The notes beneath the pieces are model-generated. The model was given only the letters and a program-made list of their open reading frames with translations, had not been told where the DNA came from and searched no databases. Of a stretch of 64,000 nt of DNA, positions 2,441 to 61,970 are shown one piece after another (position 1 is the first letter of the stretch; each line of letters opens with the position of its first letter). Made by a program: the position numbers and the translations under genes. Source of the stretch: Candidatus Omnitrophota bacterium (GTDB taxonomy: Bacteria; CAIJMQ01); NCBI GenBank assembly GCA_018812925.1, contig JAHJCU010000004.1, positions 101,621 to 165,620 of the forward strand, written 5' to 3'.

Positions 2441-4372
2441 TCACAAATACGGATCTACATTTTGCGAATCGATTATCATTACTGGAGATTTTGTTCTTGG
2501 AGAAATCACTTCTTCCTTGATGGTGTTTCTCAAGACTGTTCGCATCAGAACTTTCCCCATACCAACGGGGTTGGTGTTTAAAGTAGCGAATAACTCTCTC
2601 TTTTTAATACTCTGAATAGCGTTTTTATTCCCGTCAAAACCCATTGTGAATATTTTATTTATTTTACCCGCTTCTTTGACTGCCTCTACTGCCCCCAAAG
2701 CCATTTCATCGCTCAAACAGAAAAATGCGTCTAAATGAGGGTATTTTTTAATTAACTCTTTAGCAACTAATTTGGCTTTATCTCTGTTCCAATCCGCAGG
2801 TCTGGACTCCACTATTTTAATTGCAGGATATTTTTTCACTACTTCGATAAATCCTTTTTTCCTGTCAATGGAATCGCTTCCTTCGGAAATACCTTCAATA
2901 ATGGCTACATTTCCTTCTGTTCTTAACAACCTTACCATAAAATGCCCCACCATTCTGCCCGCTTCTTTTTGTTCATAATAAATATAAGAAGCTATTTTGC
3001 CCGGAGGGTTCATCTTCAATGTGTTGAGATTGAAAACAAAAATCGGAATTTTTGCTTTGTTTGCTTTTACGATTATGTCTCCCACATTCTGTTTCGAGCA
3101 CAAACCGATTGCATCCACTTTATCTTCAATTGCTTTTCGCAAAGAACCTAATTGTTTTTCATAACGCCCTCCATAATTCGGGTCATCACTACCTGATAGA
3201 ACAATAACATCTACACTTCCAACTTCTTCTGCGACTTCCTTTACTCCCCGCAAAACATTGGAATAAAACGGACTAAGTGACGAGGAGCAAAATACAAACC
3301 TATTCTTGTCTTTTCTGGTAATTAAAGAAGGACATACTCTATTCCTGCCTTCTTCTTTCGCAAGATATAATGCCTCGTCTGCTTTCTTTACAAGGTCTCC
3401 GTAGAATATTGCATTTTCAGGATAAGATGACAGCCCAATACTGATAGTTAATTGGACTTTTTCTGTGCCTCCGTTTGCGTTAAATACATAATTTTCCACG
3501 CTTTTCCTTATTCTTTCCGCCGCGCATAATGCCTGATGTCTATTAGTATAAGGACAAATTACCGCTATTTCTTCTCCGCCATATCTGAAAGGTATATCAT
3601 ATGCTCTTATGGTATCCCTTATTATTTCCGAAATTACATACAAAACTTTATCTCCAACAAGATGCCCGTATTTGTCATTGAATATTTTAAAATGGTCTAT
3701 ATCAATCATTAATACTGACAGAGGATATTTAAAACGATTTGCTTTTGACACCTCTTTTATTAATGTTTCATAGAAAGACCTATGATTATACAGTGTAGTT
3801 AAACTATCAATATTTGCAGTATTGAGTAATATTGCCACTCTTTCTTTCAAATATTCGTTCTGAATCGTCATCATTTCGGTATAAAATAACTTGTTCAGTT
3901 TGTCTAAACCCAAATTAGAATATTCTTGGTTATATAACAAGATAATACCGATATTTTGTTCCCCTGCTTTCATGGGAATAACAACTGACGAAACCAATTT
4001 GTTATCTTTAACGAATGACAAATTTTTTATTTCCTTGTTTTTATCAATATCAATGGCGCAGATTTTATTTTTCTTTAACAATATTTCCATAACCTGCTTT
4101 TCTTTATTTACCTGCCCTTTTTTATGTTTACCAGCGCCTGTTATAAATTCTATCCTGTTGGTTGCTTCATCTCTTGCCCAGACGGAAAGCATATGTGCTT
4201 TTGAAGATTTTAAAATTTTTGCCAATGCAGATTCTATGGCTTTTTTCTTAAAAAAGTCCCTCAAAACAAGGTTGGTTAATGTAACATTACTTACCTCTAC
4301 AGGTTTCGTCGCACGCTGCAGACTCTTTGTCTTGCTACTTTTGAAAGCAGATTTTGGTTTCTTGGTTTTCAT
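2441..4372 (-). CDS. Diguanylate cyclase: GAF-like N-terminus, GGDEF domain, C-terminal periplasmic-binding-protein-like domain
   Basis: RAYD I-site followed by the GGEEI active-site motif; last ~270 aa resemble a type I sugar-binding PBP fold; ATG at 4372 preferred over the track TTG at 4384. Confidence 0.75.
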   Translation of the reverse strand: MKTKKPKSAFKSSKTKSLQRATKPVEVSNVTLTNLVLRDFFKKKAIESALAKILKSSKAHMLSVWARDEATNRIEFITGAGKHKKGQVNKEKQVMEILLKKNKICAIDIDKNKEIKNLSFVKDNKLVSSVVIPMKAGEQNIGIILLYNQEYSNLGLDKLNKLFYTEMMTIQNEYLKERVAILLNTANIDSLTTLYNHRSFYETLIKEVSKANRFKYPLSVLMIDIDHFKIFNDKYGHLVGDKVLYVISEIIRDTIRAYDIPFRYGGEEIAVICPYTNRHQALCAAERIRKSVENYVFNANGGTEKVQLTISIGLSSYPENAIFYGDLVKKADEALYLAKEEGRNRVCPSLITRKDKNRFVFCSSSLSPFYSNVLRGVKEVAEEVGSVDVIVLSGSDDPNYGGRYEKQLGSLRKAIEDKVDAIGLCSKQNVGDIIVKANKAKIPIFVFNLNTLKMNPPGKIASYIYYEQKEAGRMVGHFMVRLLRTEGNVAIIEGISEGSDSIDRKKGFIEVVKKYPAIKIVESRPADWNRDKAKLVAKELIKKYPHLDAFFCLSDEMALGAVEAVKEAGKINKIFTMGFDGNKNAIQSIKKRELFATLNTNPVGMGKVLMRTVLRNTIKEEVISPRTKSPVMIIDSQNVDPYL

Positions 4373-4459
4373 TGTTAATTCCAACTAGCATACTATCAGA
4401 ATTCTGAAATAAAAAAAAGTAAAACTCTTTTTTAAGAAGAGAACTACCAAAAATTTAAT

Positions 4460-5464: not shown

Positions 5465-7179
5465 TGAACATCCTCCATTTTAAGTATAACCGAATTTCTG
5501 TTTTCCCATCCATCAATTTGCGCTGTATAAGCCAAATCTATGATGTCCTGCTTGTTCAAAACATTTAAATAATCCGCTTTACCAAAACCGATAACTTCTC
5601 TATGAAATTTTTCATCTTTTACCCAGAATTTTATATGATTGGAACCGACTTTTTTAGGTTCGGTCATTATTTGAAGATTCTTGGTTATAAAAACCGGTTC
5701 TTCGTTGCTTAAACCAAAAGGAGAAAAAAGTTGAAATTCTTTTACTACCGAATCAGTAAGAATATCCAAAGACATATAAGCATCCGCTACTAACAACGAA
5801 GTGAATTCCTCAATAGGTAACTCTTCGGCTAAGCTATTTATCTTGTTTCTAAATGGCTCTATATTATCCTGCGCAATCTCCAATCCGCAGGCGTGTTTAT
5901 GTCCGCCGAAAGTTACAAGCAATTCTTTTACTTTTCCCAAATTTTCGAATAAATTAAAATCACCTATACTGCGTCCGGAGCCCCTGCCAATACCGTTATT
6001 CAAAGAAATCAAAATCGCGGGTTTAGAGAATTTATCCACAAGACGCGACGCAACTATACCAATTACTCCCGGATGCCATCCTTCATTGGCAAGGACAAGA
6101 ATTCTATTTTCACGGAAATTGACATTTTCTTCCGCCATCTTCATAGCTTCCTGACAAATTTCTTCTTGTATTTTCTGTCTTTGTTTATTATCCGCTTCCA
6201 ATAAAGAAGCAATCTCCAAAGCTTCTTGTTCACACTGGCTCAAAAGCATCTTAACGCATTTATCGGCAGTATCAATCCTTCCACCTGCATTTAAACGCGG
6301 ACCCAAAATAAAACCGATATCGCGCGTCGTAATATTTTTGTTATTAATTTTGGCAGTGTTTTTTAAAGCATTTATGCCAACTTTTTTAGAAGAATCGAGT
6401 TTACTTAAACCATATTTAACTAATATCCTGTTTTCTCCTATAAGCGGAACCACATCACTTACAGTCCCAAGAGCAACTAAGTCAAGATGTTCTTCGAGGA
6501 AATCAAGTTCTTCCCGCCTGCTTGTCCCGATGTTACGTCGGGGCGAGCAGGTTTTCTCCTGCAACACTTGAGCGAACTTAAATACGACCCCAACGCCTGC
6601 GAGTTCTTTAAAAGGATAAGAACAAACTTTTGGGTTTATAACAGCTAATGCCGGAGGGATATGAACGCCTGCTTTATGATGGTCAACAATTATCGTATCT
6701 ATACCTTTTTGTTTGGCTAACAATATTTCTTCGGAACCGTCCATACCGCAATCACATGTGATTATTAATTTTACATTTTCCTTTTCTGCTTGTTTTATGG
6801 CTGTCATGTTTAGACCATAACCATCCTTAACTCTATGCGGCATATAATAAGAAGCATTTGCTCCAAGCTGTTTTAACGTAAGAAGCATAAGACATATTGA
6901 CGTTATTCCATCAACATCGTAATCCCCATAAACAAGAATTTTCTCGTCGTTTTCAATAGCCTGAAAAACTCTGGCAGAGGCTTCCCCAATCCCATTCAAA
7001 AGATACGGAGAATGAAGATCAGACAAGTTGCCGTTTAAAAATGCTTGCGCTTCCTTGGGCGTTTTACTGCCGCGATTTATCAACAGTTGCGCAGTACACG
7101 GAGAAATTCCTAAAACATTAGAAATTTGACCCGAAAGAAACGGTTCAAGTTTTTTTACTTTCCAGCGTTTCGGTTGCAT
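5461..7179 (-). CDS. recJ: Single-stranded-DNA-specific exonuclease RecJ
   Basis: DHH motifs (YGDYDVDGITS, DHH), DHHA1 region, 572 aa. Confidence 0.85.
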   Translation of the reverse strand: MQPKRWKVKKLEPFLSGQISNVLGISPCTAQLLINRGSKTPKEAQAFLNGNLSDLHSPYLLNGIGEASARVFQAIENDEKILVYGDYDVDGITSICLMLLTLKQLGANASYYMPHRVKDGYGLNMTAIKQAEKENVKLIITCDCGMDGSEEILLAKQKGIDTIIVDHHKAGVHIPPALAVINPKVCSYPFKELAGVGVVFKFAQVLQEKTCSPRRNIGTSRREELDFLEEHLDLVALGTVSDVVPLIGENRILVKYGLSKLDSSKKVGINALKNTAKINNKNITTRDIGFILGPRLNAGGRIDTADKCVKMLLSQCEQEALEIASLLEADNKQRQKIQEEICQEAMKMAEENVNFRENRILVLANEGWHPGVIGIVASRLVDKFSKPAILISLNNGIGRGSGRSIGDFNLFENLGKVKELLVTFGGHKHACGLEIAQDNIEPFRNKINSLAEELPIEEFTSLLVADAYMSLDILTDSVVKEFQLFSPFGLSNEEPVFITKNLQIMTEPKKVGSNHIKFWVKDEKFHREVIGFGKADYLNVLNKQDIIDLAYTAQIDGWENRNSVILKMEDVQ

Positions 7180-8247: not shown

Positions 8248-8997
8248 TTAGTATATATCGCAATAAAGCTCATTTTTAAAAGCACTATCTCTTACAGAAA
8301 TAATTTTATTAAATATATCTCTGATTCCGGTTCCAAAATTATCTTTATAAATATGCTCTTGTAGAATTTTTATAAATTTTGCTTCAAAATCAGAAGACTT
8401 ATGTGTATCTGCCGTATCTGCTATTATGGTTCCTATTTTAATTGTTACGTCACCCTGTATACACAAATAGGTGATATCTGATAGTTTTTTAATTATTTCT
8501 GGTTTGGGATAGGGTTTAATATCTTCTATTTGTTTTCTAATAGAACCAATGCGATCTGATATTTCTTTGTAGAAAGATTTTAGGAATTTAAAATCTTGTT
8601 TATCGAAACTTATTGACTTTTTATGTATTACTTTTAAAATAGCTTCAACATTTGCAGTTTTCTTGAATTCTTCATAGGCATTTGCAAAATCATGATTCTT
8701 ACCACCATTTTGTTCCGATATCAAATTAAACTTTCGCAAAATTCCATACATAAGAAGGTTTAACGAAAGTGTAATAAAATAAGTTTTTTCCCTGTTAATA
8801 TCTTTAATCTTTTTATCTTTTCTTTTCCTAATTAAAGAATCAATTCCCCAAATAGTTAAAGATACTACTACCATCCCGCTGATTAAGTTTATAAAGAAGC
8901 TGTTAATATCGGGGTGAATATCCAATTTGCAAAGTTTAAGAGTGATATATATAACTACCAGAATTAGCAAAATTATAAACACAATAATTTTTTCCAT
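8248..8997 (-). CDS. Hypothetical membrane-anchored protein (two N-terminal TM helices, Lys/Ile-rich)
   Basis: ORF with its own flanking intergenic gaps; no recognisable motif. Confidence 0.4.
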   Translation of the reverse strand: MEKIIVFIILLILVVIYITLKLCKLDIHPDINSFFINLISGMVVVSLTIWGIDSLIRKRKDKKIKDINREKTYFITLSLNLLMYGILRKFNLISEQNGGKNHDFANAYEEFKKTANVEAILKVIHKKSISFDKQDFKFLKSFYKEISDRIGSIRKQIEDIKPYPKPEIIKKLSDITYLCIQGDVTIKIGTIIADTADTHKSSDFEAKFIKILQEHIYKDNFGTGIRDIFNKIISVRDSAFKNELYCDIY

Positions 8998-9044
8998 TTT
9001 AAAGTAGTTTTTTAAACTTAAAACTTATAACTTACCACTTAATA

Positions 9045-10277
9045 CTATTTTCCCAGTGACAATTTATATATTCTCACAATATCGTTTTCCTTAACTTCCA
9101 CTGGGTTGGATTCTATAGGTCCTTGCCCGGTTACCATCGCGCTTTTTACCATATTATTTATACTGCCCGGGTCAACTCCCAATTCTTGCAGCCCTTTATC
9201 CATACCTATTTTTTTTAGTAGTTCTTTTACGGCTTCTACCGATTTCATTGCCTCGTATTTATTTGTTCCAAATGCTCTCTTGCCCATTGCTCCTGATGCA
9301 AGACAATATTTCTGCAAGGTAGTATTGTCACCGTTTTCGATATTGAACTGCATGATGTGAGGGGTTAAGGCAGCAAGTGCGGCGCCGTGTGAAATATTAG
9401 GATAATAAGCGCTGATTGGATGAGACATTGCGTGAGGCAATACAACACGCGAGGTGGTTATCACAAATCCTGCATATGTATCAGCCAAAGCCATTGCGCC
9501 TCTACTTCTTATGTTATCACCGTTTCTATAAGTATCTGTTAAGTAATTGAATACCAGTTCGATACCTTTCAAAGCCATTTCTTCCGTAATGGGATTGCAA
9601 TTTTTTGAAACCAGCCCTTCAAGACAATGTGTTAATACATCAACGCCGCATTCGGCAGTTAAAGCAGGCGGCATATTCGTTAAAATTTCCAAATCCACAA
9701 CGGAAAGTTTTGGGAAAATATGCTGTGAATATATTCCCATCTTTTGTTTAAGCTCAAGATTAGTTATTACGGAAAATCGCGTTACATGAGAACCTGTTCC
9801 CGAACTTGAAGTTATTGCTACTATGGGAAGTGTTTTTGATGTTATAGGTAGCGGAGTACTTTGAGATGGTGAAAAAGCCCATATTGATTGGAATTCTCCC
9901 TGCCCTGAACCAGAACAAGTTCGGTTCAGGGTGGAGCTATGACCTGCGACTATGGCTATAGCTTTTGCGGCATCTATACTTGAACCGCCGCCAAGACCAA
10001 TAATCACATTGCATTTATTTTCCAAAGCAACTTTTGCGCCTTCATCTACTAATTCTGTTGTGGGATTAGGTGTAATTTTGTTGAAAACAGTTACTTTTAT
10101 TACGTGATTTTTCAGATGGTCAATTATTTTTTGAGTAAAACCCAACTGATCCATACTGTTTCTGCCTGTTACTAATAGAACATTATCTCCAAGTTTTTTT
10201 ACTTCTTCGGATATTTTAACCGATACGCCTTTCCCAAAAAGCAGATTTACTTTTGGCAGTTCAAAATTGAAATCCAT
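9045..10277 (-). CDS. Iron-containing alcohol dehydrogenase family protein
   Basis: GGGSSIDAAKAIA motif and His-rich metal site region; GGAGG Shine-Dalgarno upstream of the ATG. Confidence 0.8.
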   Translation of the reverse strand: MDFNFELPKVNLLFGKGVSVKISEEVKKLGDNVLLVTGRNSMDQLGFTQKIIDHLKNHVIKVTVFNKITPNPTTELVDEGAKVALENKCNVIIGLGGGSSIDAAKAIAIVAGHSSTLNRTCSGSGQGEFQSIWAFSPSQSTPLPITSKTLPIVAITSSSGTGSHVTRFSVITNLELKQKMGIYSQHIFPKLSVVDLEILTNMPPALTAECGVDVLTHCLEGLVSKNCNPITEEMALKGIELVFNYLTDTYRNGDNIRSRGAMALADTYAGFVITTSRVVLPHAMSHPISAYYPNISHGAALAALTPHIMQFNIENGDNTTLQKYCLASGAMGKRAFGTNKYEAMKSVEAVKELLKKIGMDKGLQELGVDPGSINNMVKSAMVTGQGPIESNPVEVKENDIVRIYKLSLGK

Positions 10278-10432
10278 AATATTTTCCTCCGTCTAAGATA
10301 GTCGATAGTGTTTAGTAAATAGTTTACAGTGTATAGCGCATGGTTTTGGGATACTTTCTACTATCAACTATACCCTATAGACTATAAACTGTTTTTTGTA
10401 TTTTCATCTATTTTTCTCTTTAGGTCAAATTT

Positions 10433-10440
10433 TGTATAAT
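10433..10440 (+). promoter_or_regulatory. Sigma-70-type extended -10 element (TGTATAAT) upstream of transaldolase
   Basis: TG directly 5' of TATAAT, about 30 nt before the GGGGAGGAG ribosome-binding site. Confidence 0.4.
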
Positions 10441-10469
10441 AAAAAACTTTAAAATCCGGGGAGGAGAAA

Positions 10470-11546
10470 ATTACTAAATTACATGAACTAAAAAAAGCTG
10501 GGCAGTCTGCGTGGTATGACAATATTACAAGACAACTTCTTCTTTCAGGAGAGCTGGATAAACTTATATCTAGCGGTATTTTGGGGTTAACTTCAAATCC
10601 CACTATTTTTCAAAAAGCTTTAACATCTCCGGCATACAAAAAACAATTGGATGAATTAAAATCCAAAAAAATTAGCGTAATTGAGGCGTATGAAAAATTA
10701 GTTTTCAAAGATATATTGGATGCGGCAAAATGTTTTGATGGTGTTTATAAGACAAGTAACGGCGAAGATGGATATGTAAGCATTGAGGTGTCTCCGCAAT
10801 ATGCCTATGACACTCTTAAGACAATAGAAGAAGCAAAACGAACTTTTACGGTTTTGGACAGACCCAACATAATGATAAAGATTCCTGCTACTAAGGAGGG
10901 GATTCCGGCAATAAAAGAAGTTATTGCTTCGGGTATAAATGTAAACGCAACATTGATATTCTCCGTAGAACAATACGAAAAAACGGCTAATGCGTATATA
11001 GAAGGTCTCCAGAAACGCGCATCGGAAGGTAGGGATTTATCAAATATTCATTCTGTAGCAAGCGTATTTATATCCAGAGTTGATACTGATATTGATAAGG
11101 GTTTAGATGCAAAAGGAAATACAGCACTAAGAGGGCTTGCGGCTGTCGCTAATGCAAAGGTAATTTATGCAAAATTCAAAGAAATTTTTTACAGCGAAAG
11201 ATTCGAGAAACTAAAGAAGAAAGGCGCAAATATGCAAAGACCGCTTTGGGCTTCTACTTCTTCTAAAGACCCTGCTTATTCAAAAGTTAAATATGTTGAA
11301 GAATTAATAGGTTCCGAAACGGTAAATACTATGCCTGAAGAAACGGTTAAGACTTTCCTTCAATCCGGCAATATTAAAGTTGTTGTGGAAGAAAACTTAG
11401 AAGATGCAAAAAAAATAATTAAGAGTTTAAATGAGGAAGGTATAAATATCGATTTAGTGTGCAAAAAACTACAAGCTGAAGGAGTCAAGAAATTTGTTGA
11501 ATCATTTGAATTGCTTTTAGATTCAATCTCTAAAAATATTTTATAG
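10470..11546 (+). CDS. tal: Transaldolase; N-terminus extends upstream of the track start, start codon uncertain (possibly ATT at 10470)
   Basis: Conserved motifs GQSAWYDNITRQLL and LGLTSNPTIF; the first lies upstream of TTG 10581 in a frame open to 10443 that has no ATG/GTG/TTG. Confidence 0.7.
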   Translation: MTKLHELKKAGQSAWYDNITRQLLLSGELDKLISSGILGLTSNPTIFQKALTSPAYKKQLDELKSKKISVIEAYEKLVFKDILDAAKCFDGVYKTSNGEDGYVSIEVSPQYAYDTLKTIEEAKRTFTVLDRPNIMIKIPATKEGIPAIKEVIASGINVNATLIFSVEQYEKTANAYIEGLQKRASEGRDLSNIHSVASVFISRVDTDIDKGLDAKGNTALRGLAAVANAKVIYAKFKEIFYSERFEKLKKKGANMQRPLWASTSSKDPAYSKVKYVEELIGSETVNTMPEETVKTFLQSGNIKVVVEENLEDAKKIIKSLNEEGINIDLVCKKLQAEGVKKFVESFELLLDSISKNIL

Positions 11547-29959: not shown

Positions 29960-30247
29960 TCATTTTTCGTTTAATCTCTTAAATAGAAACTTTCCCGATT
30001 TAAATTTAACGACTTTTCGGGAAGAGATGCTTATCTTTTCTCCCGTTTTGGGATTTCTTGCAATTTTGGCTTCTCGCCAACTTATCTTGAAGACTCCGAA
30101 TTTTCTTAACTCCACCCTTTCTCCTCGCGTCATAGCTTCAGTAATATGTTCCAATGTTTCTTCTATTATTCTCTTCACTACTTGCTGACGCTCGCCTGTA
30201 GAATAGGAAATTTTCTTTACAAGGTCTTTTTTTGTAATAGTATTCAT
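29960..30247 (-). CDS. HU/IHF family DNA-binding protein
   Basis: 95 aa; RNPKTGE arm motif. Confidence 0.8.
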   Translation of the reverse strand: MNTITKKDLVKKISYSTGERQQVVKRIIEETLEHITEAMTRGERVELRKFGVFKISWREAKIARNPKTGEKISISSRKVVKFKSGKFLFKRLNEK

Positions 30248-30249
30248 TT

Positions 30250-30846
30250 TTATGTCTTCATTGCTTTGGTGGGCTCTTCTTTTTCTTTATCCTCTTCTTC
30301 AAGTGGTTCTTCGGGTTGCAAGGTGTCTAAAAATTCCTGCCATTTAAAACCGATAAATTTATTATATGTTTTTACATACGCTTCGTCAGCTTTAAAAATT
30401 ATTTTATCTTCTTCGCGCAGATTATATATACTATTGGTTGCTGGTGCGATATATAGGGAAATAATTATGCAACTCATAAGATTTAAGCCCAATATTATTC
30501 CGCAAATTGCGCCGCCTATTTTATCAATAAGTGTGAAAAAATAAATCGTTTTTTCTTTAGTTTTTGAACGAATTTTTGAGAAAAATAATTGTTTTATTGA
30601 CCATAAAGGTAAAAGCGAAAATGTGAATATTGCCCAGAACGCTATAAGAAGAGCATATTGTTCATCCGGAAAAATATATTTGAAAATATAGGGCGCCAAT
30701 GATTGGAAAAGAGTAAAACTCATTCCTGCGCTGAATAAGAAATTTATAAGGTTTACAAACTCGTTTAATAACCCCTCGCTTATTCCTATGTAAATTCTAT
30801 ATGCGATTACGACAACAATCGAAAGATTAAGGATATAGGGAATCAT
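30250..30846 (-). CDS. CvpA family membrane protein with an acidic C-terminal tail
   Basis: Four predicted TM helices, CvpA-like N-terminus; neighbours purine genes as cvpA often does. Confidence 0.5.
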   Translation of the reverse strand: MIPYILNLSIVVVIAYRIYIGISEGLLNEFVNLINFLFSAGMSFTLFQSLAPYIFKYIFPDEQYALLIAFWAIFTFSLLPLWSIKQLFFSKIRSKTKEKTIYFFTLIDKIGGAICGIILGLNLMSCIIISLYIAPATNSIYNLREEDKIIFKADEAYVKTYNKFIGFKWQEFLDTLQPEEPLEEEDKEKEEPTKAMKT

Positions 30847-32255
30847 TTTAAAACTCCTTCAATTTCATCCACACTAGTAAGCCCTTGCCTGATCTTGGTT
30901 AACCCGTCTTCAAGAAGCGTTATCATTCCCTGTTTTTTTGCTTGGGTGAAAATTTCTTGTTCGGACGCCTTATTACTTATTAGTTCTTTGATTGTTTTGT
31001 CAATTACCAAAATTTCGAATAGGCCTGTGCGTTTCCTATACCCCGTATTTGTGCAATAATTGCAGCCCTTTGTTTTATAAACTTGTTCTCCTGCTTTTAA
31101 CTGTATGTTTTCCTGACCAAAAAATTTATCGGAAGGCAGAACGTAAGATATCTTACATTGCGGACATAAAAGACGGACTAATCTCTGACTAATTACCCCT
31201 GAAAGAGAAGACGATATAAGATAACGTTCAAAGCCCATTTCAAAAAGTCGCATAATTGTGCTTATCGAGTCTTTGGTGTGCAAAGTCGAAAAAACCAAAT
31301 GTCCGGTTAAAGAAGCTTCAATGGCTACTTTTGCAGTTTCGACATCTCTTATTTCTCCCACCATTATTATATCCGGGTCCTGTCGCAGTATACTTCTTAA
31401 ACAGTTGGCAAATGTTACCCCTGCACGCACATTTATTGGAATTTGAGTTGTGTTTACAATTTTATATTCAATAGGGTCTTCTATACTTATAATGTTTTTA
31501 CCCAGATTATTTACCTTATTTAAGATAGCATAAAGAGTAGTTGTTTTTCCACATCCTGTAGGTCCAACTATTAGCACAATGCCATCATTACGAAATACCA
31601 AAGAACGGAATTTGTCCTCTGCTTCAGGGAGAACGCCAAGATTTGAAATGTCGACTAATCCTTCACTAGGGTCAAGAATTCTCATTACCATGGTCTCGCC
31701 ATATTGAGATGCGGATACAGAGACTCTAAAATCTATTTTTTTATCTTTTATAGTCGAGGAGAAACTGCCGTCCTGGAAAGAACGTTTTTGCGCTATGTCA
31801 AGGTTACTTAAAACTTTGATAGCGGAAACAATCGCTTTGCACAATTCTACGGGGAAAGTCCTATATTCATAAAGAAATCCGTCTATCCTGAAACGAACGG
31901 TTAGTTTCTCTTTATCCGGGTCCAAATGAATATCCGTTGCTCTATAAGCAACAGCATCTTGAAAAATTTTATTTACAGTTTTTAAAACTTGTCTGTCATC
32001 ATTGATTGTTTTGGAAGATGAAAAATATTTTGACTTGGCATTTTGGGAACCTTTTTGTTGAGAAGTAAAATAAAAAATAGAAGGTAAATAATAGTACAAA
32101 AGTAATGCCAATGGACCCAAGAAAAAAAATAAGCTGTTACAGAGCCTTACATTTCTTCCTTTTTTCCTGGCATCTATGTTGACCCATGCCATCAAAAAAA
32201 ACCAGGCATAGGAAAATGCCAAAAGTGTAATACTAAAAGCTATTTTTCCTGACAA
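30843..32255 (-). CDS. GspE/PilB-family secretion ATPase with an N-terminal membrane anchor
   Basis: Walker A GPTGCGKTT, Asp box, His box, tetracysteine CPQC...CNYC; N-terminal ~60 aa hydrophobic; TTG start with AAGGGAG SD. Confidence 0.75.
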   Translation of the reverse strand: MSGKIAFSITLLAFSYAWFFLMAWVNIDARKKGRNVRLCNSLFFFLGPLALLLYYYLPSIFYFTSQQKGSQNAKSKYFSSSKTINDDRQVLKTVNKIFQDAVAYRATDIHLDPDKEKLTVRFRIDGFLYEYRTFPVELCKAIVSAIKVLSNLDIAQKRSFQDGSFSSTIKDKKIDFRVSVSASQYGETMVMRILDPSEGLVDISNLGVLPEAEDKFRSLVFRNDGIVLIVGPTGCGKTTTLYAILNKVNNLGKNIISIEDPIEYKIVNTTQIPINVRAGVTFANCLRSILRQDPDIIMVGEIRDVETAKVAIEASLTGHLVFSTLHTKDSISTIMRLFEMGFERYLISSSLSGVISQRLVRLLCPQCKISYVLPSDKFFGQENIQLKAGEQVYKTKGCNYCTNTGYRKRTGLFEILVIDKTIKELISNKASEQEIFTQAKKQGMITLLEDGLTKIRQGLTSVDEIEGVLK

Positions 32256-32308
32256 TATTAAAACTCCCTTTTAATTATAGCAAAAGCCTTTAATAATTTT
32301 TAATTGTT

Positions 32309-33094
32309 TTAAAGATTTTCTTTTACGTACTTTACTGCATTTTCAAAAATCGCAAGCCCCACTCCCTTCTCAGGTAATGTTTCTCTTGTATGTTTAGGAT
32401 GGTTTTCTCTATAGATGTAAGCTTCGGGATGCGGCATAAGTCCAAAGATACGGCCGGAAGGGTCGCATATACCCGCAATATTGTCCAAGGAACCGTTTGG
32501 ATTGTGCGGATATTTGGATGCTTTCTCGCCATTAGGATTTGCATATCGAAGAACAATAAGATTTTCTTTTTTCAATTTTGCAAGTGTTTTAGGCTCTGCA
32601 TAAAATTTCCCCTCTCCGTGTCGAATTGGTAGATATAGATTTTTAATGCCTTTTGTAAATACACAAGGAGATTTTTCCACTTTTAAATTTATCCACCTGT
32701 CTTCAAATTTTCCGGAATCGTTAAAAGCTAGGGTCACTTTTTGTGTCCAATAATCGTCGTTTATTCCCGGCAAAAATCCGAGTTTTACCATTATTTGAAA
32801 TCCGTTGCATATTCCGATAATAAGCTTTTTATCGGAAATAAATTTTAAAAGATTTTTCTTTAGTTTATATTTAAACTTAACCGCATGAATTTTTCCAGCC
32901 GCAATATCATCCCCAAAAGAAAATCCTCCCGGAAACGCTAAAATATCGTAACTGTCTAATTTTTTAGAACCTTCTATTAATTCGTTGGTATGCGCTTTTT
33001 CTACGCAAGCTCCTGCCAATTCAAACGCTTTTTTCGTCTCGTTATCACAGTTTATACCATGTCCGTATAAGACCAAAACTTTAACTTTTCTCAT
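32309..33094 (-). CDS. purQ: Phosphoribosylformylglycinamidine synthase, glutaminase subunit PurQ
   Basis: Class I glutamine amidotransferase nucleophile GICNGFQ; 261 aa. Confidence 0.85.
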   Translation of the reverse strand: MRKVKVLVLYGHGINCDNETKKAFELAGACVEKAHTNELIEGSKKLDSYDILAFPGGFSFGDDIAAGKIHAVKFKYKLKKNLLKFISDKKLIIGICNGFQIMVKLGFLPGINDDYWTQKVTLAFNDSGKFEDRWINLKVEKSPCVFTKGIKNLYLPIRHGEGKFYAEPKTLAKLKKENLIVLRYANPNGEKASKYPHNPNGSLDNIAGICDPSGRIFGLMPHPEAYIYRENHPKHTRETLPEKGVGLAIFENAVKYVKENL

Positions 33095-36000
33095 GGTTTA
33101 ATTGTATTAAAAGGTTCTTTCCAAACTCTTTTTAAGACCTCAATATTTTCTTTAAGTATTATTTGCCCTTTCAACCCCTTTAGCGTAAGGATTTTCTTCC
33201 CCACAACTTTCCCCACCAATTTAATATCGTTCCCTTTCATTATCCTTCTGAATTCTTTTTCATATTTTCGGGGCACAGTTACAATAAATCTTGACGCTGA
33301 CTCCGAATAAAGAAGTTTATCTGTATTGTCGACATTTTCTCTTGGAACAAAATCCAGATTTATTTCCAGTCCATATCCGCCGGCAAAGGAAATTTGAGCT
33401 AATGCAACCCCAAGTCCTCCTTTATAGCAACCATGCGCAGAAGCCACGAGTCCGCTTTCGATAACCTCACTTAAAGCTTTATAAAGTTTAATCGCTTTTT
33501 TTGTTCTTACAATGGGAACGTTTAATCCGATTTCGCCAAACATTTCGTAATATTCCGAACCACCACATTCGTCATAAGTTTTCCCCAAAACAAACACCAA
33601 ATCCCCCGGATGTTTTACATCCATCGTTACGCATTTTTTGTAATTGTCTATTATGCCTGCGCTGGAAAACATCACAGTCGGTAATGACGAAATCCTGTGT
33701 TCTTTGCCGTGTGTATCAGGTATAGTTGTATCCATTGACATTGAATCTTTGCCGGATATACAGGGGGTGCCATAGGCAAGAGTATAATCATAAAGCGCTT
33801 GATTGGCTCTTACGAGTTGCGCCATCTTGTATTTTGCGTCGGGGTTGTCTTTTCCAGACAGTGTAGATGGCCAGCAAAAATTGTCGTTTAAGACAATTTT
33901 CTTAAGGTTTCCGCCGATTGCTACAATTCTCCTTATGGCTTCATCAAAAGCATTTGCTGTCATGTGATATGTATCAATTGGGCTATATTTTGGGTTTATA
34001 CCCGATGCAATTGCAATTGCTTTCTTGGATTCAAAATCAGGTCTTATGACTACCGCGTCGGAATGGACATCGCTCTCTTCTCCCACTAAATGTTTTATTA
34101 CACTTGTTGCCTGAACCTCATGATCAAATTGGCGGACTATATATTCCTTGCTTGAGATATTTGGCCTTGCAAGCATTTTTTTAAAAAATTTAGCATGATT
34201 TTTTATTTTGGGTATTTCCGGTTCGCTTAAACCTCTTGACTGGGGTGTAAGCCACTGTGCTTCAAGCCTAAGTTGCGGAACTCCTTCATGAACAAATTCC
34301 ATATCCATAAAAGAAACATGTTTGTTGTTGTATAAACAATGAAATTTCCCGGAGGAGTTAAATGTTCCAATAGCCGTAGCTTCTACTTCGTGTCTTTTTG
34401 CAAGTGCCATAAATTCTTTTATTTTTTTAGGCGACACTGACAATATCATTCTTTCTTGTGATTCAGAAACAAGAATTTGCCAAGGGTCAAGCCCTTTATA
34501 TTTTATAGGGACTTTATCCAAATGAAGTTCAAATCCTTTTGCAACGTCTTTTGGTTTGCTCCTGCCAAAATTGTATCCCATTTCCCCTACACTAGAAGAA
34601 AGACCCCCGGCTCCGCAATCTTGTATGCAAGTATAGAGGTTTTTATCCCTTGCTTCACTTAAAAAATCATGCATTTTTTTCTGCGTATAAGGGTCTCCCA
34701 TTTGCACATGTCCCAAGGTAATATGTTTTCCACCTTCCATTGACGATTCTGTTGCCCCGTGTATACCGTCAATGCCAACTTTGCCGCCACACATTATTAT
34801 TAAATCACCAGGGTCTGTCTGTTTTTCTGAGCCGCCTTCTCCGTTTATTATTTTTGGAATAAGTCCCGCCGCCAGCACATATAGCGCAGGTTTCCCAAGA
34901 TATCCGTTGTCGAAAAAAACGATTCCATAGGGAGTGGGAACTCCATGTTTATTCCCTCCGTCTTGTACCCCTTGTCTTACACCCTCCAAAAGTCTCTTGG
35001 GATGAATTTCAGGTTTTAAATCGCCATCATAGTTAGGCTCTCCTGTACAGAATCCGTATGTTCCATATATAAGTTTGCAACCCTTTCCTGTTCCCATTGG
35101 GTCGCGATACACTCCCACTATGCCCGTAAGTGCTCCTCCATAGGGATATTTTGCAGAAGGCGAATTATGCGTTTCGCATTTGAAAGCGAAAAGATAATTA
35201 TTATTGAATTCTATGACACCCGAATTATCCCATAGCGTAGAAACCATCCATTTCAGCTTTTTCTTTAGTTTTTCCGTTGAGGCACGAATATATGTTTTAA
35301 ACAAACTATTTATATATTTTGTTTTCCCTCCTTCTGTATATTCAACATACGCATTGAATATCTTGTGTTTACAGTGTTCCGACCATGTTTGAGCCAAAAC
35401 TTCTAATTCGGCATCTGTAGGGTTATTGTCCAATCCTATATGTTTACGGTTTTTGATCACATCCGCTCTTAAAAAATATTCTTTGATTTTTTGCATCTCT
35501 TCAATGTTTAAGGCGAGATTTTTTTGTTTACTCAAACTCAATAATTCTTGAACAGAACCCAATTCCAGCTTTGATATTTTAGGTTTGTGCGCTATAAGCA
35601 CTTTGGGAATTTCAGGCATATAGCCTTTTTCTAAATACGTTTTTTTGTCTATAACGTGCCATGACTCAACGGATTCATACGCGAAGACACCTTTTGCAAT
35701 TTTTTCAACGTCTGGTTTATTTAAACAACCTTTTATGAGGAAATATTTTGATGTGTAGACAGCTTCGCCTTTATTGAATTTCGTATGCAGGATGTCTTGA
35801 ATAGCTTCTTGCGCTCTTTCTCCGGTATTGTCCTTTACTCCGGGCAGATTTTTCACATGGATAAGCCAATCCCAAGAAAATTTGCCAATTAGAGACCTAT
35901 CAACCGAAAATTCCTGAATTAATGGATCAGAAAACAGCTCCTGTGCAAGGATATTCAGGTCTTTTTTAGAGAATTTTTTGTCAATAGAATATAAGGTGAC

Positions 36001-36108
36001 TTCTTTAACGAATTTAACCTGAAACCCCAAATCTAATATCTCTCTTTGTTTATGTTCCGCAAAAGCATTTTTTAATCTGGTTTTGAAGGTGACTTCTATA
36101 GTGTGCAT
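33091..36108 (-). CDS. purL: Phosphoribosylformylglycinamidine synthase PurL with a fused PurS-like N-terminal domain
   Basis: ETHNSPSA motif, linker SEHCKHKIF, PurS-like first ~80 aa; 1005 aa with no glutaminase domain. Confidence 0.85.
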   Translation of the reverse strand: MHTIEVTFKTRLKNAFAEHKQREILDLGFQVKFVKEVTLYSIDKKFSKKDLNILAQELFSDPLIQEFSVDRSLIGKFSWDWLIHVKNLPGVKDNTGERAQEAIQDILHTKFNKGEAVYTSKYFLIKGCLNKPDVEKIAKGVFAYESVESWHVIDKKTYLEKGYMPEIPKVLIAHKPKISKLELGSVQELLSLSKQKNLALNIEEMQKIKEYFLRADVIKNRKHIGLDNNPTDAELEVLAQTWSEHCKHKIFNAYVEYTEGGKTKYINSLFKTYIRASTEKLKKKLKWMVSTLWDNSGVIEFNNNYLFAFKCETHNSPSAKYPYGGALTGIVGVYRDPMGTGKGCKLIYGTYGFCTGEPNYDGDLKPEIHPKRLLEGVRQGVQDGGNKHGVPTPYGIVFFDNGYLGKPALYVLAAGLIPKIINGEGGSEKQTDPGDLIIMCGGKVGIDGIHGATESSMEGGKHITLGHVQMGDPYTQKKMHDFLSEARDKNLYTCIQDCGAGGLSSSVGEMGYNFGRSKPKDVAKGFELHLDKVPIKYKGLDPWQILVSESQERMILSVSPKKIKEFMALAKRHEVEATAIGTFNSSGKFHCLYNNKHVSFMDMEFVHEGVPQLRLEAQWLTPQSRGLSEPEIPKIKNHAKFFKKMLARPNISSKEYIVRQFDHEVQATSVIKHLVGEESDVHSDAVVIRPDFESKKAIAIASGINPKYSPIDTYHMTANAFDEAIRRIVAIGGNLKKIVLNDNFCWPSTLSGKDNPDAKYKMAQLVRANQALYDYTLAYGTPCISGKDSMSMDTTIPDTHGKEHRISSLPTVMFSSAGIIDNYKKCVTMDVKHPGDLVFVLGKTYDECGGSEYYEMFGEIGLNVPIVRTKKAIKLYKALSEVIESGLVASAHGCYKGGLGVALAQISFAGGYGLEINLDFVPRENVDNTDKLLYSESASRFIVTVPRKYEKEFRRIMKGNDIKLVGKVVGKKILTLKGLKGQIILKENIEVLKRVWKEPFNTIKP

Positions 36109-51246: not shown

Positions 51247-51804
51247 TTATTTCTGCTCTTTCAAAAATTCTAAAATCGGTTTCCCTGCGATATAGAGTTC
51301 CTCGACTACGGCATCACCGGATTTTACGCGGACCGTTATGTAGGCGTCCTGATTGCCTCTGACGTTGTGTCCTCTGTAAGCTCTTTCTGCGGCGGGAGCA
51401 AGTGTTTCTTCCATATAATACCGGTTAAACGGAAGAATTAGATTTGCTTCATTACGGCTACAATAGCTAACTCTTACTTGAATGTAATCATCTCCTACGG
51501 GACGTTCTATACTTAAACCGGCTATTTTTGCAAAGCCTTTGTCATCTTCTTTAATGAGGGCATAAACCTTTTGAAAATGCCTTAATTTAAGTCCTTCAGG
51601 TAAAGGGGTTTTATTTTCTTCTACGCCCAATGCAACATATCGTCCCCGAAACGCATCGTAGGGGTCTACAGGCTGGGTCTTGAAGCGGAATTGTTTTCCA
51701 TTATTAAGAATAGTTTCATAACGGATAATTGTTGAAATTGGTTTTACAAGCTGCAAGAGAGCCAAACAGAAAAACAATCCTAAAATATAAATAAATTTCT
51801 TCAT
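51247..51804 (-). CDS. Secreted protein, possibly GDYXXLXY family
   Basis: N-terminal signal/anchor; DPYDAFRGRY motif; stop overlaps the upstream membrane-protein gene. Confidence 0.4.
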   Translation of the reverse strand: MKKFIYILGLFFCLALLQLVKPISTIIRYETILNNGKQFRFKTQPVDPYDAFRGRYVALGVEENKTPLPEGLKLRHFQKVYALIKEDDKGFAKIAGLSIERPVGDDYIQVRVSYCSRNEANLILPFNRYYMEETLAPAAERAYRGHNVRGNQDAYITVRVKSGDAVVEELYIAGKPILEFLKEQK

Positions 51805-53090
51805 GTTTTATTCTTCCAACGGTTCATAAGCAGAAGATTTGTTAACAGGAAACCGATTCCGATGATTATAAAAGCTATCCCTCTGGTTATGAAGCTCATA
51901 TCGCTGTCAAAAAATCTTGCAACAACCAGCAGTATTAAAATGACGATGCCTAGATTTATAGTGCCAATATGTTCTTTTTTAACACCTTCAGCTATTGTAT
52001 TTATGCCTAAGGCTGATAGATACAAATTGAATAGGATAACAGGGAAAATAGTATTCGGATTAAATGAATATAAAGCGTGTCCTGCAAGTGTTACTAAAGG
52101 AAGAAAAGCGAACGATATTACTGCTGTCTTGTCCCGCCTGATAAATTCTACGAAAAGAACCAAAGCAATTAGAAAGAGAATTACTGCAAAAATATATTCG
52201 CCTTTAGCTTCGGCAAACTGAGGAAACTTCCAGTAAATTGTTTTCCATATATATCTATAGGTAAGAATATATGAAAGCGTGAAAGCGCCCAATAACCCCA
52301 CAATCTTGAATGGTTCTAACAGGTTTGTTTTAAATTTACCTACCCAAAGGACTCCTATGAGATACAAAATGGCAAAGAAGCTACCATATATTATCATCCA
52401 GTAAGTCGGCAATATATCTAATAGAGTAATGCCTATGGCTACGCAAAGACAGATAGAAATAATCAAACTAAAGAAATTGAAACGGATAAAATATGAATCT
52501 TTTTTTGCAATCTGCAAAAAATGGGGAATTATTAAAGCGGCGAGAGGCCAAAACAGTATGGCGTTTCCATCACCAAATTTCGCGCTGCCAGACCAAAAAG
52601 TAATTCCTATAATATAGAGCATTGCTGGGACGGTAGCCCGCATAAAATATACTAAAGGAAGTCCCAATAACATCCAGAATAATAAAAAGTGGGAGTCATA
52701 GAATGAGATATGGTATGTCTGTTCAATAAGTGCAGCTGAAGCACCTATCATAAGAAATAGAAAAGTTGCAGTCCCTTCTTTCCACGAATCGGATTCATTT
52801 CGCTTTAGTATTGTCCATCCGACAAGCAACTGTGCCAAAATCAAAGGGAGAAGAGAAAGAATAGTTCTTGCGGAACGGGAAAGTTCCTGCCAGTTGTGGG
52901 CTAAAAGGAGAATTATTCCTGACCCGATTAGTAAAGAACCCAAGAGACTGAATATTATTAGAGCAACTCTTGGTCCTTTTCTATCGCTATAGTATTGACG
53001 TAGTTTGTCGGCAGTTTCCGAAGATAATATACCCTTATCTACTAAAATAGGTATTTCTTTATAAAGCCACTGTATAGCTTTTCTGCTCAC
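51801..53090 (-). CDS. Polytopic membrane protein (DUF2157/DUF4401-like)
   Basis: Short soluble N-terminus followed by about 12 TM helices. Confidence 0.45.
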   Translation of the reverse strand: MSRKAIQWLYKEIPILVDKGILSSETADKLRQYYSDRKGPRVALIIFSLLGSLLIGSGIILLLAHNWQELSRSARTILSLLPLILAQLLVGWTILKRNESDSWKEGTATFLFLMIGASAALIEQTYHISFYDSHFLLFWMLLGLPLVYFMRATVPAMLYIIGITFWSGSAKFGDGNAILFWPLAALIIPHFLQIAKKDSYFIRFNFFSLIISICLCVAIGITLLDILPTYWMIIYGSFFAILYLIGVLWVGKFKTNLLEPFKIVGLLGAFTLSYILTYRYIWKTIYWKFPQFAEAKGEYIFAVILFLIALVLFVEFIRRDKTAVISFAFLPLVTLAGHALYSFNPNTIFPVILFNLYLSALGINTIAEGVKKEHIGTINLGIVILILLVVARFFDSDMSFITRGIAFIIIGIGFLLTNLLLMNRWKNKT

Positions 53091-54141: not shown

Positions 54142-54522
54142 TTAATATCCTCTATCTCTTGTTCCTCTGGTTCTTCTATTGTCTCTTTTTTGTCCGCCTC
54201 GTTTGGAATTATAGCCGCCATGTCCACCCGAACCGAAACCGCCTCCTGGTGAGCTGAAACCGCCGCGTGAGGGACCAAAACTTCTTGGTTTGGGAGGACG
54301 AGCTTCATCAATTCTCAATTTGCGTCCTTCAAATTCGCTTTCACTTAATTCTGTTTTTGCTTTTCCGGCTGCTTCCGGAGTAGCCATTTCAATAAATGCA
54401 AAACCTTTGCCTTGGATTAGGTCAACTTTTACAACTTCGCCATACTTAGTGAATAATTCTTTTAACTGTTCACTGGTTACCGCATAATTGAGATTTCCTA
54501 CATACAGCTTGCTACCTTGCAT
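54142..54522 (-). CDS. RRM-type RNA-binding protein with a glycine-rich RGG tail
   Basis: RNP2 LYVGNL and RNP1 KGFAFIEM motifs; C-terminal RGGFSSPGGGFGSGGHGG. Confidence 0.85.
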   Translation of the reverse strand: MQGSKLYVGNLNYAVTSEQLKELFTKYGEVVKVDLIQGKGFAFIEMATPEAAGKAKTELSESEFEGRKLRIDEARPPKPRSFGPSRGGFSSPGGGFGSGGHGGYNSKRGGQKRDNRRTRGTRDRGY

Positions 54523-58115: not shown

Positions 58116-58724
58116 ATGATTGAAGAGATAAACAAGCAAGGTGGATTATTCGGGGACGATGAAGTTTTAATTAAGGCTTTTCAATCGGGAGATAAAAAGG
58201 CATTTGATAGGTTGTTGCTTGGACATATGAATAGGGTTTTCAATCTGTGCTACAGATTTATGAGCGACTATGAAGAAGCAAATGACTGTGCTCAAGAAAC
58301 CTTTATAAAAGTTTACCGGTCTTTGAATGGGTTTAAATTTCAGTCGTCCTTTTCAACATGGCTGTATAGAATAGCAGTAAACACATGTAAAAATAGGTTG
58401 AAATCGGCGGAATATAGAAACAGAATGCAAACTTTTAAAATCGGGGAGAATAAAGAACTGAATAACAATTCGTATACGGGTGAAATTGCGGACCAATCAT
58501 TGTCTCCCGTTACGCTTTTAGATAAAAAAGAGACGGAAGCATTAATTCAATCCGCGATAGATTCTTTGCCCGAGGAACAAAAAGAGATTATTGTGCTTCG
58601 CGATATAGAAGGATTTTCTTACGAGGAAATAGCAGATATAACGGACAATGAACTCGGCACAGTAAAATCAAAACTTTCAAGGGCAAGAGGTACACTTAAA
58701 GAAAAACTAAAGGGGTTAATTTAA
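58116..58724 (+). CDS. RNA polymerase sigma-70 factor, ECF subfamily
   Basis: Region 2 motifs (DCAQETFIKVYR, WLYRIAVNTCKN) and a region 4 helix-turn-helix. Confidence 0.85.
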   Translation: MIEEINKQGGLFGDDEVLIKAFQSGDKKAFDRLLLGHMNRVFNLCYRFMSDYEEANDCAQETFIKVYRSLNGFKFQSSFSTWLYRIAVNTCKNRLKSAEYRNRMQTFKIGENKELNNNSYTGEIADQSLSPVTLLDKKETEALIQSAIDSLPEEQKEIIVLRDIEGFSYEEIADITDNELGTVKSKLSRARGTLKEKLKGLI

Positions 58725-59726: not shown

Positions 59727-59744
59727 CATTTCAAAAAATTTTCG

Positions 59745-59771
59745 GAACTTTTCTCTCTCTCCTTTGTCTAA
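59745..59771 (+). promoter_or_regulatory. Second ECF sigma-type promoter motif (GGAACTT-N14-GTCTAA) upstream of the VIT-vWA gene
   Basis: cggaacttttctctctctcctttgtctaa, about 40 nt before the AAGGAGGAG SD and the ATG at 59809. Confidence 0.5.
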
Positions 59772-59808
59772 ATAAGTGAAAACTAGAGAACAAACAAAGG
59801 AGGAGAAA

Positions 59809-61947: not shown

Positions 61948-61970
61948 AAAATTAAAAAGGAGGAGTTGAG

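Follow-up and report, generated by a model that had tools for sequence, protein, structure and literature searches.

A membrane-anchored GspE/PilB-class ATPase and its recurrent CvpA-family neighbour in Omnitrophota and Planctomycetota

Results

An ATPase gene overlaps a cvpA-like gene

GspE/PilB ATPases are soluble motors that contact the membrane via partner proteins and act through a GspF/PilC platform; through a soluble N-terminal domain they normally dock onto partners of the GspL/PilM type or, in the case of MshE-type proteins, bind cyclic di-GMP (c-di-GMP). Here, we describe an ATPase of this class with a predicted N-terminal membrane anchor, encoded in a stretch of 64,000 nucleotides (the window) from a Candidatus Omnitrophota bacterium (assembly GCA_018812925.1, contig JAHJCU010000004.1, positions 101,621 to 165,620 of the forward strand). 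The gene is directly followed by a gene for a CvpA-family membrane protein, the ATG of which, as read in the sequence, overlaps the ATPase stop codon by 4 bp (ATGA); the translational coupling claimed in an initial annotation of the window thus holds. The two genes and the segments of the ATPase are arranged as follows:

30843..32255, minus strand: coding sequence of the membrane-anchored GspE/PilB-class ATPase, 470 residues, TTG start
32181..32243, minus strand: hydrophobic helix 1, residues 5-25, ending in a conserved W..(L/V)(A)WV
32136..32180, minus strand: basic loop, residues 26-40, NIDARKKGRNVRLCN, with the family motif N.D..KKGRNV.(F/L)WN
32067..32135, minus strand: hydrophobic helix 2, residues 41-63, SLFFFLGPLALLLYYYLPSIFYF, with a nearly conserved G-P and Y54
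32001..32066, minus strand: linker, residues 64-85, variable in the alignment and probably disordered (predicted local distance difference test (pLDDT) 30-33)
30861..32003, minus strand: T2SSE core (N2 domain and C-terminal ATPase domain; Pfam), residues 85-465
31539-31565, minus strand: Walker A, GPTGCGKTT, residues 231-239
31464-31490, minus strand: Asp box, ISIEDPIEY, residues 256-264
31344-31379, minus strand: Walker B, DPDIIMVGEIRD, residues 293-304
31275-31307, minus strand: His box, TGHLVFSTLHT, residues 317-327
31155-31166 and 31053-31064, minus strand: CxxC pairs, CPQC (residues 364-367) and CNYC (residues 398-401)
30250..30846, minus strand: coding sequence of the CvpA-family membrane protein, 198 residues, four hydrophobic helices and an acidic tail

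The ATPase core is of the assembly type

In a Pfam scan, T2SSE (PF00437) matched residues 85-465 of the ATPase with E=8.6e-121 and 403.5 bits against a cut-off of 24.9, and T2SSE_N/MshEN (PF05157) gave no match. The nearest solved structure is that of Vibrio cholerae EpsE (1p9r; E=1.4e-104, residues 85-465); PilB/PilF structures (5tsg, 5zfr) matched as well, and all PDB alignments begin at residue ~80-90. The best NCBIfam match was to GspE (TIGR02533; 472.2 bits against an equivalog cut-off of 630.25), and scores also stayed below the cut-offs for PilB (TIGR02538; 452.2 against 675.65 bits), TfpB (404 against 850), ComGA (263 against 300) and, at the subfamily level, PilT/PilU (TIGR01420; 194.9 against 319.1). 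Unlike PilT/PilU, the ATPase has a tetracysteine site. The motifs and C364, C367, C398 and C401 are unchanged throughout an 18-sequence family alignment (A1), with invariant Walker A Lys and Thr, Asp-box Glu, Walker B, both His-box histidines and the arginines of the N2 and C-terminal domains. Based on this conservation, we conclude that the core is an intact motor of the assembly and hexamer type, predicted to be catalytically competent; in the initial annotation, the protein had been named a GspE/PilB-type ATPase with all hallmark motifs, and the Pfam match and the invariance of the motifs bear this out. We also considered an origin in anti-phage defence and rejected it, the PADLOC matches of the ATPase being at the level of the P-loop (21-24 bits) and the CvpA-like protein having none.

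Two hydrophobic helices take the place of the N-terminal domain

Kyte-Doolittle analysis placed hydrophobic segments at residues 5-25 and 41-63 of the ATPase, and in an AlphaFold2 monomer model (mean pLDDT 67) the N-terminus comprises helices at residues 2-32 and 42-61 followed by disorder at residues 61-82. The same region carries the motif W..LVAWVN.D..KKGRNV.LWNSL.FFLGPLG...Y, in which W24, N40, P48 and Y54 are invariant in the 18-sequence alignment. The claim of the initial annotation that ~60 hydrophobic residues replace the usual N-terminal domains, for which a prediction of topology had been proposed, is therefore upheld by the two segments and the missing PF05157 match, and we conclude that a domain of the PF05157 type is here replaced by two predicted membrane helices and a ~20-residue linker. 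Every one of the 18 family members carries a net positive charge in the loop between the helices (mean +2.7); the N-tail is neutral, and the charge downstream of helix 2 is only weakly positive.

Neither Pfam nor NCBIfam has a model for the anchor or for the anchored ATPase subfamily. The anchor resembles in layout those of the PLDc_N type, for example the N-terminus of the cardiolipin synthase ClsA, in which a helix, a short basic loop and a second helix with W...P.(L/V)G...Y are likewise followed by a cytoplasmic enzyme. The hhalign register of ClsA and the anchor agrees, but with a probability of 4.7% the match is statistically unsupported; four family N-termini were unmatched by PLDc_N (PF13396) even at E<=10, and ClsA itself matches this model at 33.7 bits. 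We consider membership of the anchor in PLDc_N unsupported.

The start codon and the anchor are conserved

Upstream of the ATPase gene lie two sites:

32264..32268, minus strand: Shine-Dalgarno sequence GGGAG, 8 nt upstream of the TTG, as read from the sequence
32274..32303, minus strand: promoter-like element of putative function, TTAAAA-18-TATAAT with TG, located in the 53 nt that separate purQ from the ATPase gene

The promoter-like site scored 10/12 in the scan, and its extended -10 element, TGcTATAAT, occupies 32274-32282. TGnTATAAT is kept at the same place in three related loci (L081, L001 and L002), as is a purine-rich equivalent of the Shine-Dalgarno sequence. In L081 (86% protein identity) and L002 (81%), TTG, Shine-Dalgarno sequence and TGnTATAAT are at matching positions, while in L001 (75%) the start codon is ambiguous; more distant relatives have ATG at the position equivalent to TTG. 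Codons 1-64 differ from those of L081 by 19 synonymous and 11 non-synonymous changes, and gene callers have called the identical 470-residue product on 10 public contigs. Because conservation at the protein level reaches down to ~42% identity, we conclude that the anchor is not an artefact of the chosen start codon. Because the promoter-like site in the purQ-ATPase gap is conserved, the ATPase-cvpA(-hup) unit, hup being the gene for an HU-type protein that follows, probably has its own promoter, and this unit is probably not merely the tail of a purine operon.

Anchored ATPases form a subfamily

A search of 5.8 billion proteins with the ATPase sequence returned two groups. The first comprises ~30 proteins of 468-515 residues that match end to end with 42-91% identity; the second comprises thousands of canonical PilB/GspE proteins of ~570 residues with PF05157, in which the match is confined to residues ~90-470. 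Core identity to canonical Omnitrophota PilB is ~48-52%. A profile search of 1.84 billion representative proteins extended the anchor motif to at least 20 more clusters (50% identity), with lengths of 470-665 residues. When the anchor alone served as the profile against the 5.8 billion proteins, there were no matches, probably owing to the composition filter acting on so short and hydrophobic a profile, since local hmmsearch with --max detects the motif readily. Of the 80 species-representative genome loci compared, 24 have a gene for an anchored ATPase, mostly in Planctomycetaceae, where the proteins have 560-720 residues, 3-4 hydrophobic helices and the homologous motif LW.....WV..DSR.LK.RPEFWNS. 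These loci and the protein search also show that Omnitrophota and Planctomycetota encode canonical PilB/GspE with PF05157.

We built a neighbour-joining tree from 207 ATPase-core sequences, of which 82 are from anchored proteins. A single clade of 76 holds 74 of these 82, and its two remaining members, which have no anchor, are truncated gene calls; this is the outcome of a phylogenetic check proposed in the initial annotation. Because the mean best Jaccard index of the clade over 100 bootstraps is 0.94, its core is stable. Taken together, the alignments and the tree suggest that the anchored ATPases are a distinct, essentially monophyletic subfamily with the anchor as its conserved domain.

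Several variants were seen in these searches. One anchored sub-clade (P0030, P0056, P0062, P0135, P0166) has a CxxC...CxxC zinc ribbon between anchor and ATPase core, and L054 of BRC1 (8696-11293) encodes an 865-residue anchored ATPase of this zinc-ribbon type that has an extra, long N-terminal region of extracytoplasmic appearance and no CvpA neighbour. At the top of the profile search were proteins of ~1000 residues with two tandem GspE-type modules (P0121-P0134), which have no membrane segment and in some of which one module has lost Walker A.

The ATPase and cvpA-like genes form a recurring pair

The CvpA-like protein matches Colicin_V (PF02674) over residues 8-138 with 47.1 bits against a cut-off of 29.3, and Planctomycete partners score lower (21.7-30.2 bits); no NCBIfam model matched the protein in the window. 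A hydropathy scan with a threshold of 1.6 found three regions, centred at ~10-18, 72-76 and 110-128, and by inspection of the sequence we placed a further helix, the second, at residues ~30-50, which brings the count to four transmembrane helices. An AlphaFold2 model built from 14 close homologues, of low pLDDT (47), has helices at residues 2-23, 27-58, 63-96 and 102-136. CvpA proteins encoded next to anchored ATPases share a C-terminal extension of ~45 residues, IFK.DE..LK.Y..F..FDW.EFL, usually followed by an acidic tail, and we conclude that the partner is a distinct CvpA subfamily.

In all 10 independent metagenomic contexts for which we used precomputed annotations, a Colicin_V/CvpA-like gene lies directly downstream of the ATPase gene on the same strand. 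These contexts span ATPase identities from 86% to ~40%, with three divergent cluster representatives among them, and have no flanking genes in common (GntR and a carbohydrate-binding module, ExbBD/FecCD, ATP-binding cassette transporters, glutamate dehydrogenase, RecO, toxin-antitoxin genes and others). With local hidden Markov models (HMMs) built from the CvpA partners and run over all fetched loci, a CvpA-like open reading frame (ORF) was detected directly downstream at 20 of 24 anchored loci and at none of the 50 unanchored PilB/GspE loci that had enough flanking DNA (Fisher p=1.8e-14, uncorrected for phylogeny). The initial annotation had proposed co-occurrence of ATPase and CvpA as a check, and these counts favour it. 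The 4-bp overlap of stop and start codons recurs in the window, L001, L081, L087 and L089. Conversely, 8 of 15 close CvpA-like homologues are on contigs size-matched to those of ATPase homologues, and the others are on short contigs. Based on these contexts, we conclude that the ATPase and cvpA-like genes are a recurring two-gene unit in Omnitrophota and Planctomycetota in which the pairing is nearly always kept.

Neighbouring genes change from locus to locus

In the window, the pair is flanked by the following genes:

29960..30247, minus strand: gene for an HU-type DNA-binding protein, starting 2 nt past the CvpA stop codon and probably co-transcribed
32309-33094: purQ, upstream of the ATPase gene
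33091-36108: purL, upstream of purQ

The next gene after the HU gene is tyrS. Because the HU gene adjoins the pair in closer Omnitrophota relatives only, HU is probably not a component of a machine; as it also switches side in L085, we rejected it as a third component. PilZ, PurM, RecO, SMC_N/AAA_23 and DUF368 were likewise rejected as the product of a third gene, each being confined to one context or one subclade. The initial annotation had spoken of a purine/CvpA operon. Although purL-purQ do lie upstream, a purine gene stands beside the pair only in the lineage of the window and L081 (purL-purQ) and in L085 (purM), and the promoter-like site lies in the 53-nt gap; across the loci compared, the purine linkage is incidental and unconserved.

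Among the substantial non-overlapping ORFs (>=110 residues) of the 64-kb window, there was no T2SSF/PilC, pilin, secretin or second T2SSE; a regular expression for the prepilin motif had zero matches in the window, and a local ATPase-core HMM matched this ORF alone. Similarly, the annotated flanks of the ten related contexts contain no T2SSF/PilC, and gspL/gspM, pseudopilin and secretin genes of a type II secretion locus are likewise missing from them. The descriptions "orphan" and lacking GspF/PilC, pilin and secretin genes nearby therefore stand for the window, and the former also for +/-6-10 kb in relatives.

The anchored ATPase gene is immediately preceded by a genuine member of the PilT/PilU family (378-399 bits, cut-off 319) at six loci from Planctomycetota, and in L023 and L034 the two genes overlap at the start of the ATPase gene:

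L023, 8109-9293: pilT
L034, 8118-9281: pilT
L033, 8142-9314: pilT
L003, 8386-9492: pilT
L038 and L045: pilT also present

In the order pilT, anchored pilB-like gene, cvpA-like gene, the third place is the one in which, by analogy, pilC would be expected. At seven Planctomycetaceae loci of one subclade, the CvpA-like gene is followed by a DUF368/VCA0040-like gene, described in Pfam as undecaprenyl-phosphate translocase-like:

L013, 10768-11751: DUF368/VCA0040-like gene (E=2e-75)
L008, L012, L015, L017, L018 and L021: DUF368/VCA0040-like gene also present

At L087, a PilZ-domain gene (5972-6721) overlaps the end of the CvpA-like gene, which may hint at c-di-GMP control in a family without the c-di-GMP-binding MshEN domain.

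Other genes of the window were seen in passing. PurL (1005 residues) has the N-terminal region and the formylglycinamide ribonucleotide amidotransferase linker typical of "large" PurL, with the glutaminase encoded separately by purQ, the two genes overlapping by 4 bp; this purL/purQ architecture is intermediate between the large and small PurL types. Elsewhere, the window contains a row of genes on the plus strand for an extracytoplasmic function sigma factor, a zf-HC2 anti-sigma factor, a VIT-VWA protein and a DUF4139 protein (58116-63383), a GDYXXLXY and DUF2157 membrane-protein pair (51247-53090), a bacterial RRM_1 RNA-binding protein (54142-54522) and a GGDEF cyclase fused to a periplasmic sugar-binding domain (2441-4384).

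Discussion

A motor that may tether itself

Synteny and translational coupling make a functional partnership of the ATPase and the CvpA-like protein likely. As the fuller explanation of these data, we propose, with a probability of roughly 60%, that the protein is a motor ATPase that tethers itself to the membrane and works together with a membrane protein of the CvpA family. The initial annotation had suggested a membrane-tethered ATPase with a non-canonical partner, and the conservation of the anchor, the near-monophyly of the anchored ATPases and the persistence of the pair amid changing neighbours lend support to that suggestion. In our working model, the anchor would replace the partner-binding N1 domain and hold the ATPase ring permanently on the inner membrane; because the hexamer would then be a permanent membrane resident, no tether of the GspL/PilM type would be needed. 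The ring would sit beside or around a presumed CvpA-like oligomer, and the CvpA-like protein would be the membrane component acted on, receiving the ATP-driven domain movements and taking the place that the GspF/PilC platform, with GspL/M, has in canonical machines. The output could be a type IV-like filament made of pilins encoded elsewhere or a task of CvpA in envelope transport or gating; the pilT neighbours favour a filament, and the housekeeping context together with the lack of pilus genes favours a task in envelope or ion homeostasis.

Several observations weigh against this proposal. Given the net positive inter-helix loop, a two-pass hairpin with a cytoplasmic ATPase clashes with the positive-inside rule, and in the Omnitrophota-type anchor either helix 2 would be re-entrant or the rule would be broken; Planctomycete relatives have an additional helix, which removes the conflict. 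The exact membership of the anchored clade was recovered in 13 of 100 bootstraps. Four loci (L023, L038, L045 and L054) encode an anchored ATPase and have no detectable CvpA-like gene downstream. PilC/GspF proteins insert cytoplasmic domains of ~100 residues into the ATPase ring; because the CvpA-like protein has only short cytoplasmic parts, a platform-like role would need another contact, probably within the membrane.

Alternative explanations

It is possible, although doubtful, that no filament machine is involved and that the ATPase energizes or regulates CvpA, which would act as a channel or transporter in the homeostasis of the envelope or of ions; the CvpA of these phyla would then have gained a partner driven by ATP. 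Published work connects CvpA with envelope stress and speculates that it may form an ion channel (bioRxiv 10.1101/2020.09.25.314492). The setting of the pair would suit such a role, with a housekeeping context, no pilus genes nearby, a DUF368/VCA0040-like gene following in the seven Planctomycetaceae loci and a purine gene adjacent twice (purL-purQ in the window, purM in L085), echoing cvpA-purF of Escherichia coli. To our knowledge, however, no GspE-family ATPase gates a channel, the adjacency of pilT in some Planctomycetota favours filament dynamics, and the CvpA-like partner is far diverged from E. coli CvpA; because it is too diverged for a BLASTP match, phenotypes from E. coli may not transfer. 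We regard it as unlikely that the ATPase serves as assembly motor for a conventional type IV pilus or type II secretion system with platform, pilins and secretin encoded elsewhere, in which the anchor would replace the GspL/PilM tether and CvpA would be a non-mechanical neighbour. This would fit a core whose closest matches are GspE and PilB and which has retained the tetracysteine site, a mark of assembly ATPases, as well as the PilT/PilU genes that abut or overlap the ATPase gene at the six Planctomycetota loci and point to filament extension and retraction; moreover, Omnitrophota and Planctomycetota have many pilin-like proteins, and an N_methyl/LamG gene lies near the L083 copy. Yet, at the level of the phylum, canonical PilB/GspE is present as well, and therefore canonical loci in these phyla are not generally short of an ATPase. 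Furthermore, a platform or pilin gene is never adjacent, while a CvpA-like gene almost always is, down to ~42% identity. Because this pairing persists across two phyla, often with overlapping stop and start codons, hitch-hiking is hard to invoke.

Two further explanations would do away with the anchor or with the motor. If translation began at an internal Met such as Met22, the product would be a soluble, N-terminally truncated PilB and the anchor an annotation artefact. The ATPase gene does start with TTG, and the relatives P0011, P0012 and P0015 (449 residues) are called from an internal ATG in databases. However, a strong Shine-Dalgarno sequence lies 8 nt before the TTG and none is placed for Met22, which falls within helix 1; relatives have TTG or ATG at the corresponding position; conservation of both helices and the loop extends across ~42% identity and into Planctomycetota; and synonymous changes outnumber non-synonymous ones in codons 1-64. 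We therefore reject this explanation as extremely improbable; a downstream Met leaving no transmembrane segment was also one of the two refutations that the initial annotation had named, and ribosome-binding site, start position and conservation instead back the TTG. That the ATPase is a degenerate, non-catalytic scaffold is prompted solely by the absence of canonical partners, with nothing specific in its favour; given that the family shows no variation in the catalytic motif residues, the N2 and C-terminal arginines or the four cysteines, we consider a dead enzyme highly improbable and reject it.

Implications

A bolder extension of our proposal, to which we give little credence, is that the anchored ATPase and the CvpA-like protein, joined by PilT in some Planctomycetota, are an unrecognised minimal branch of type IV filament motors in which a CvpA-family platform or ion-conducting stator, rather than GspF/PilC, lies under the ATPase ring. 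If it were true, CvpA, a protein of "function unknown" for 35 years, would be a membrane coupling element that a secretion-type ATPase can drive. A membrane-integral subfamily with a different, small polytopic partner would extend the range of architectures known for type IV filament-type motors, and the pairing would be the first conserved genomic association of CvpA with a defined molecular machine, which may give a first handle on the role of CvpA. Planctomycetota such as Planctopirus limnophila have been genetically manipulated.

Comparison with known systems

Full-text literature searches found no paper linking CvpA to GspE/PilB or describing membrane-integral PilB/GspE ATPases, and nothing relevant on PF02674 together with PF00437 or on Planctomycetes PilB/PilT with transmembrane helices. 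With GspE/EpsE (PDB 1p9r/4kss), the ATPase in the window shares the N2 and C-terminal core, the nucleotide-binding motifs and the tetracysteine zinc site, but it has two predicted membrane helices in place of the GspL-binding N1E domain and is paired with a CvpA-like gene, with no gspF, gspL, gspM or pseudopilin neighbours. To PilB/PilF/MshE, it is similar in its core, and the pilT gene adjacent in some Planctomycetota recalls pilB-pilT-pilC clusters; in contrast to these proteins, the anchored ATPase is without PF05157 and a CvpA-like gene occupies the usual position of pilC.

Like GspF/PilC, the CvpA-like protein is a polytopic inner-membrane protein encoded beside the ATPase, that is, in the slot of the platform. 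The two have no sequence relationship (Colicin_V, not T2SSF), and whereas GspF/PilC has three helices and two cytoplasmic domains of ~100 residues, the CvpA-like protein has four predicted helices and short cytoplasmic loops. The proposed relation between ATPase and CvpA-like protein would parallel that between GspE and GspF. In a recent model, PulF forms a trimeric ion channel beneath the PulE ATPase hexamer (PMC10790770), and a channel is also what CvpA has been speculated to be.

With E. coli CvpA (b2313), the CvpA-like protein shares the Pfam family, four predicted helices and a linkage to purine genes (cvpA-purF in E. coli), but there is no significant BLASTP similarity (best E=3.4), and E. 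coli CvpA is without the ~45-residue C-terminal extension and the acidic tail and its gene without an adjacent ATPase gene. CvpA is a widespread inner-membrane protein that is conserved in many phyla and matters in gut colonisation by pathogens. Thus, while GspE/PilB ATPases are already known, what is new is a membrane-anchored branch of them with a conserved CvpA-family partner.

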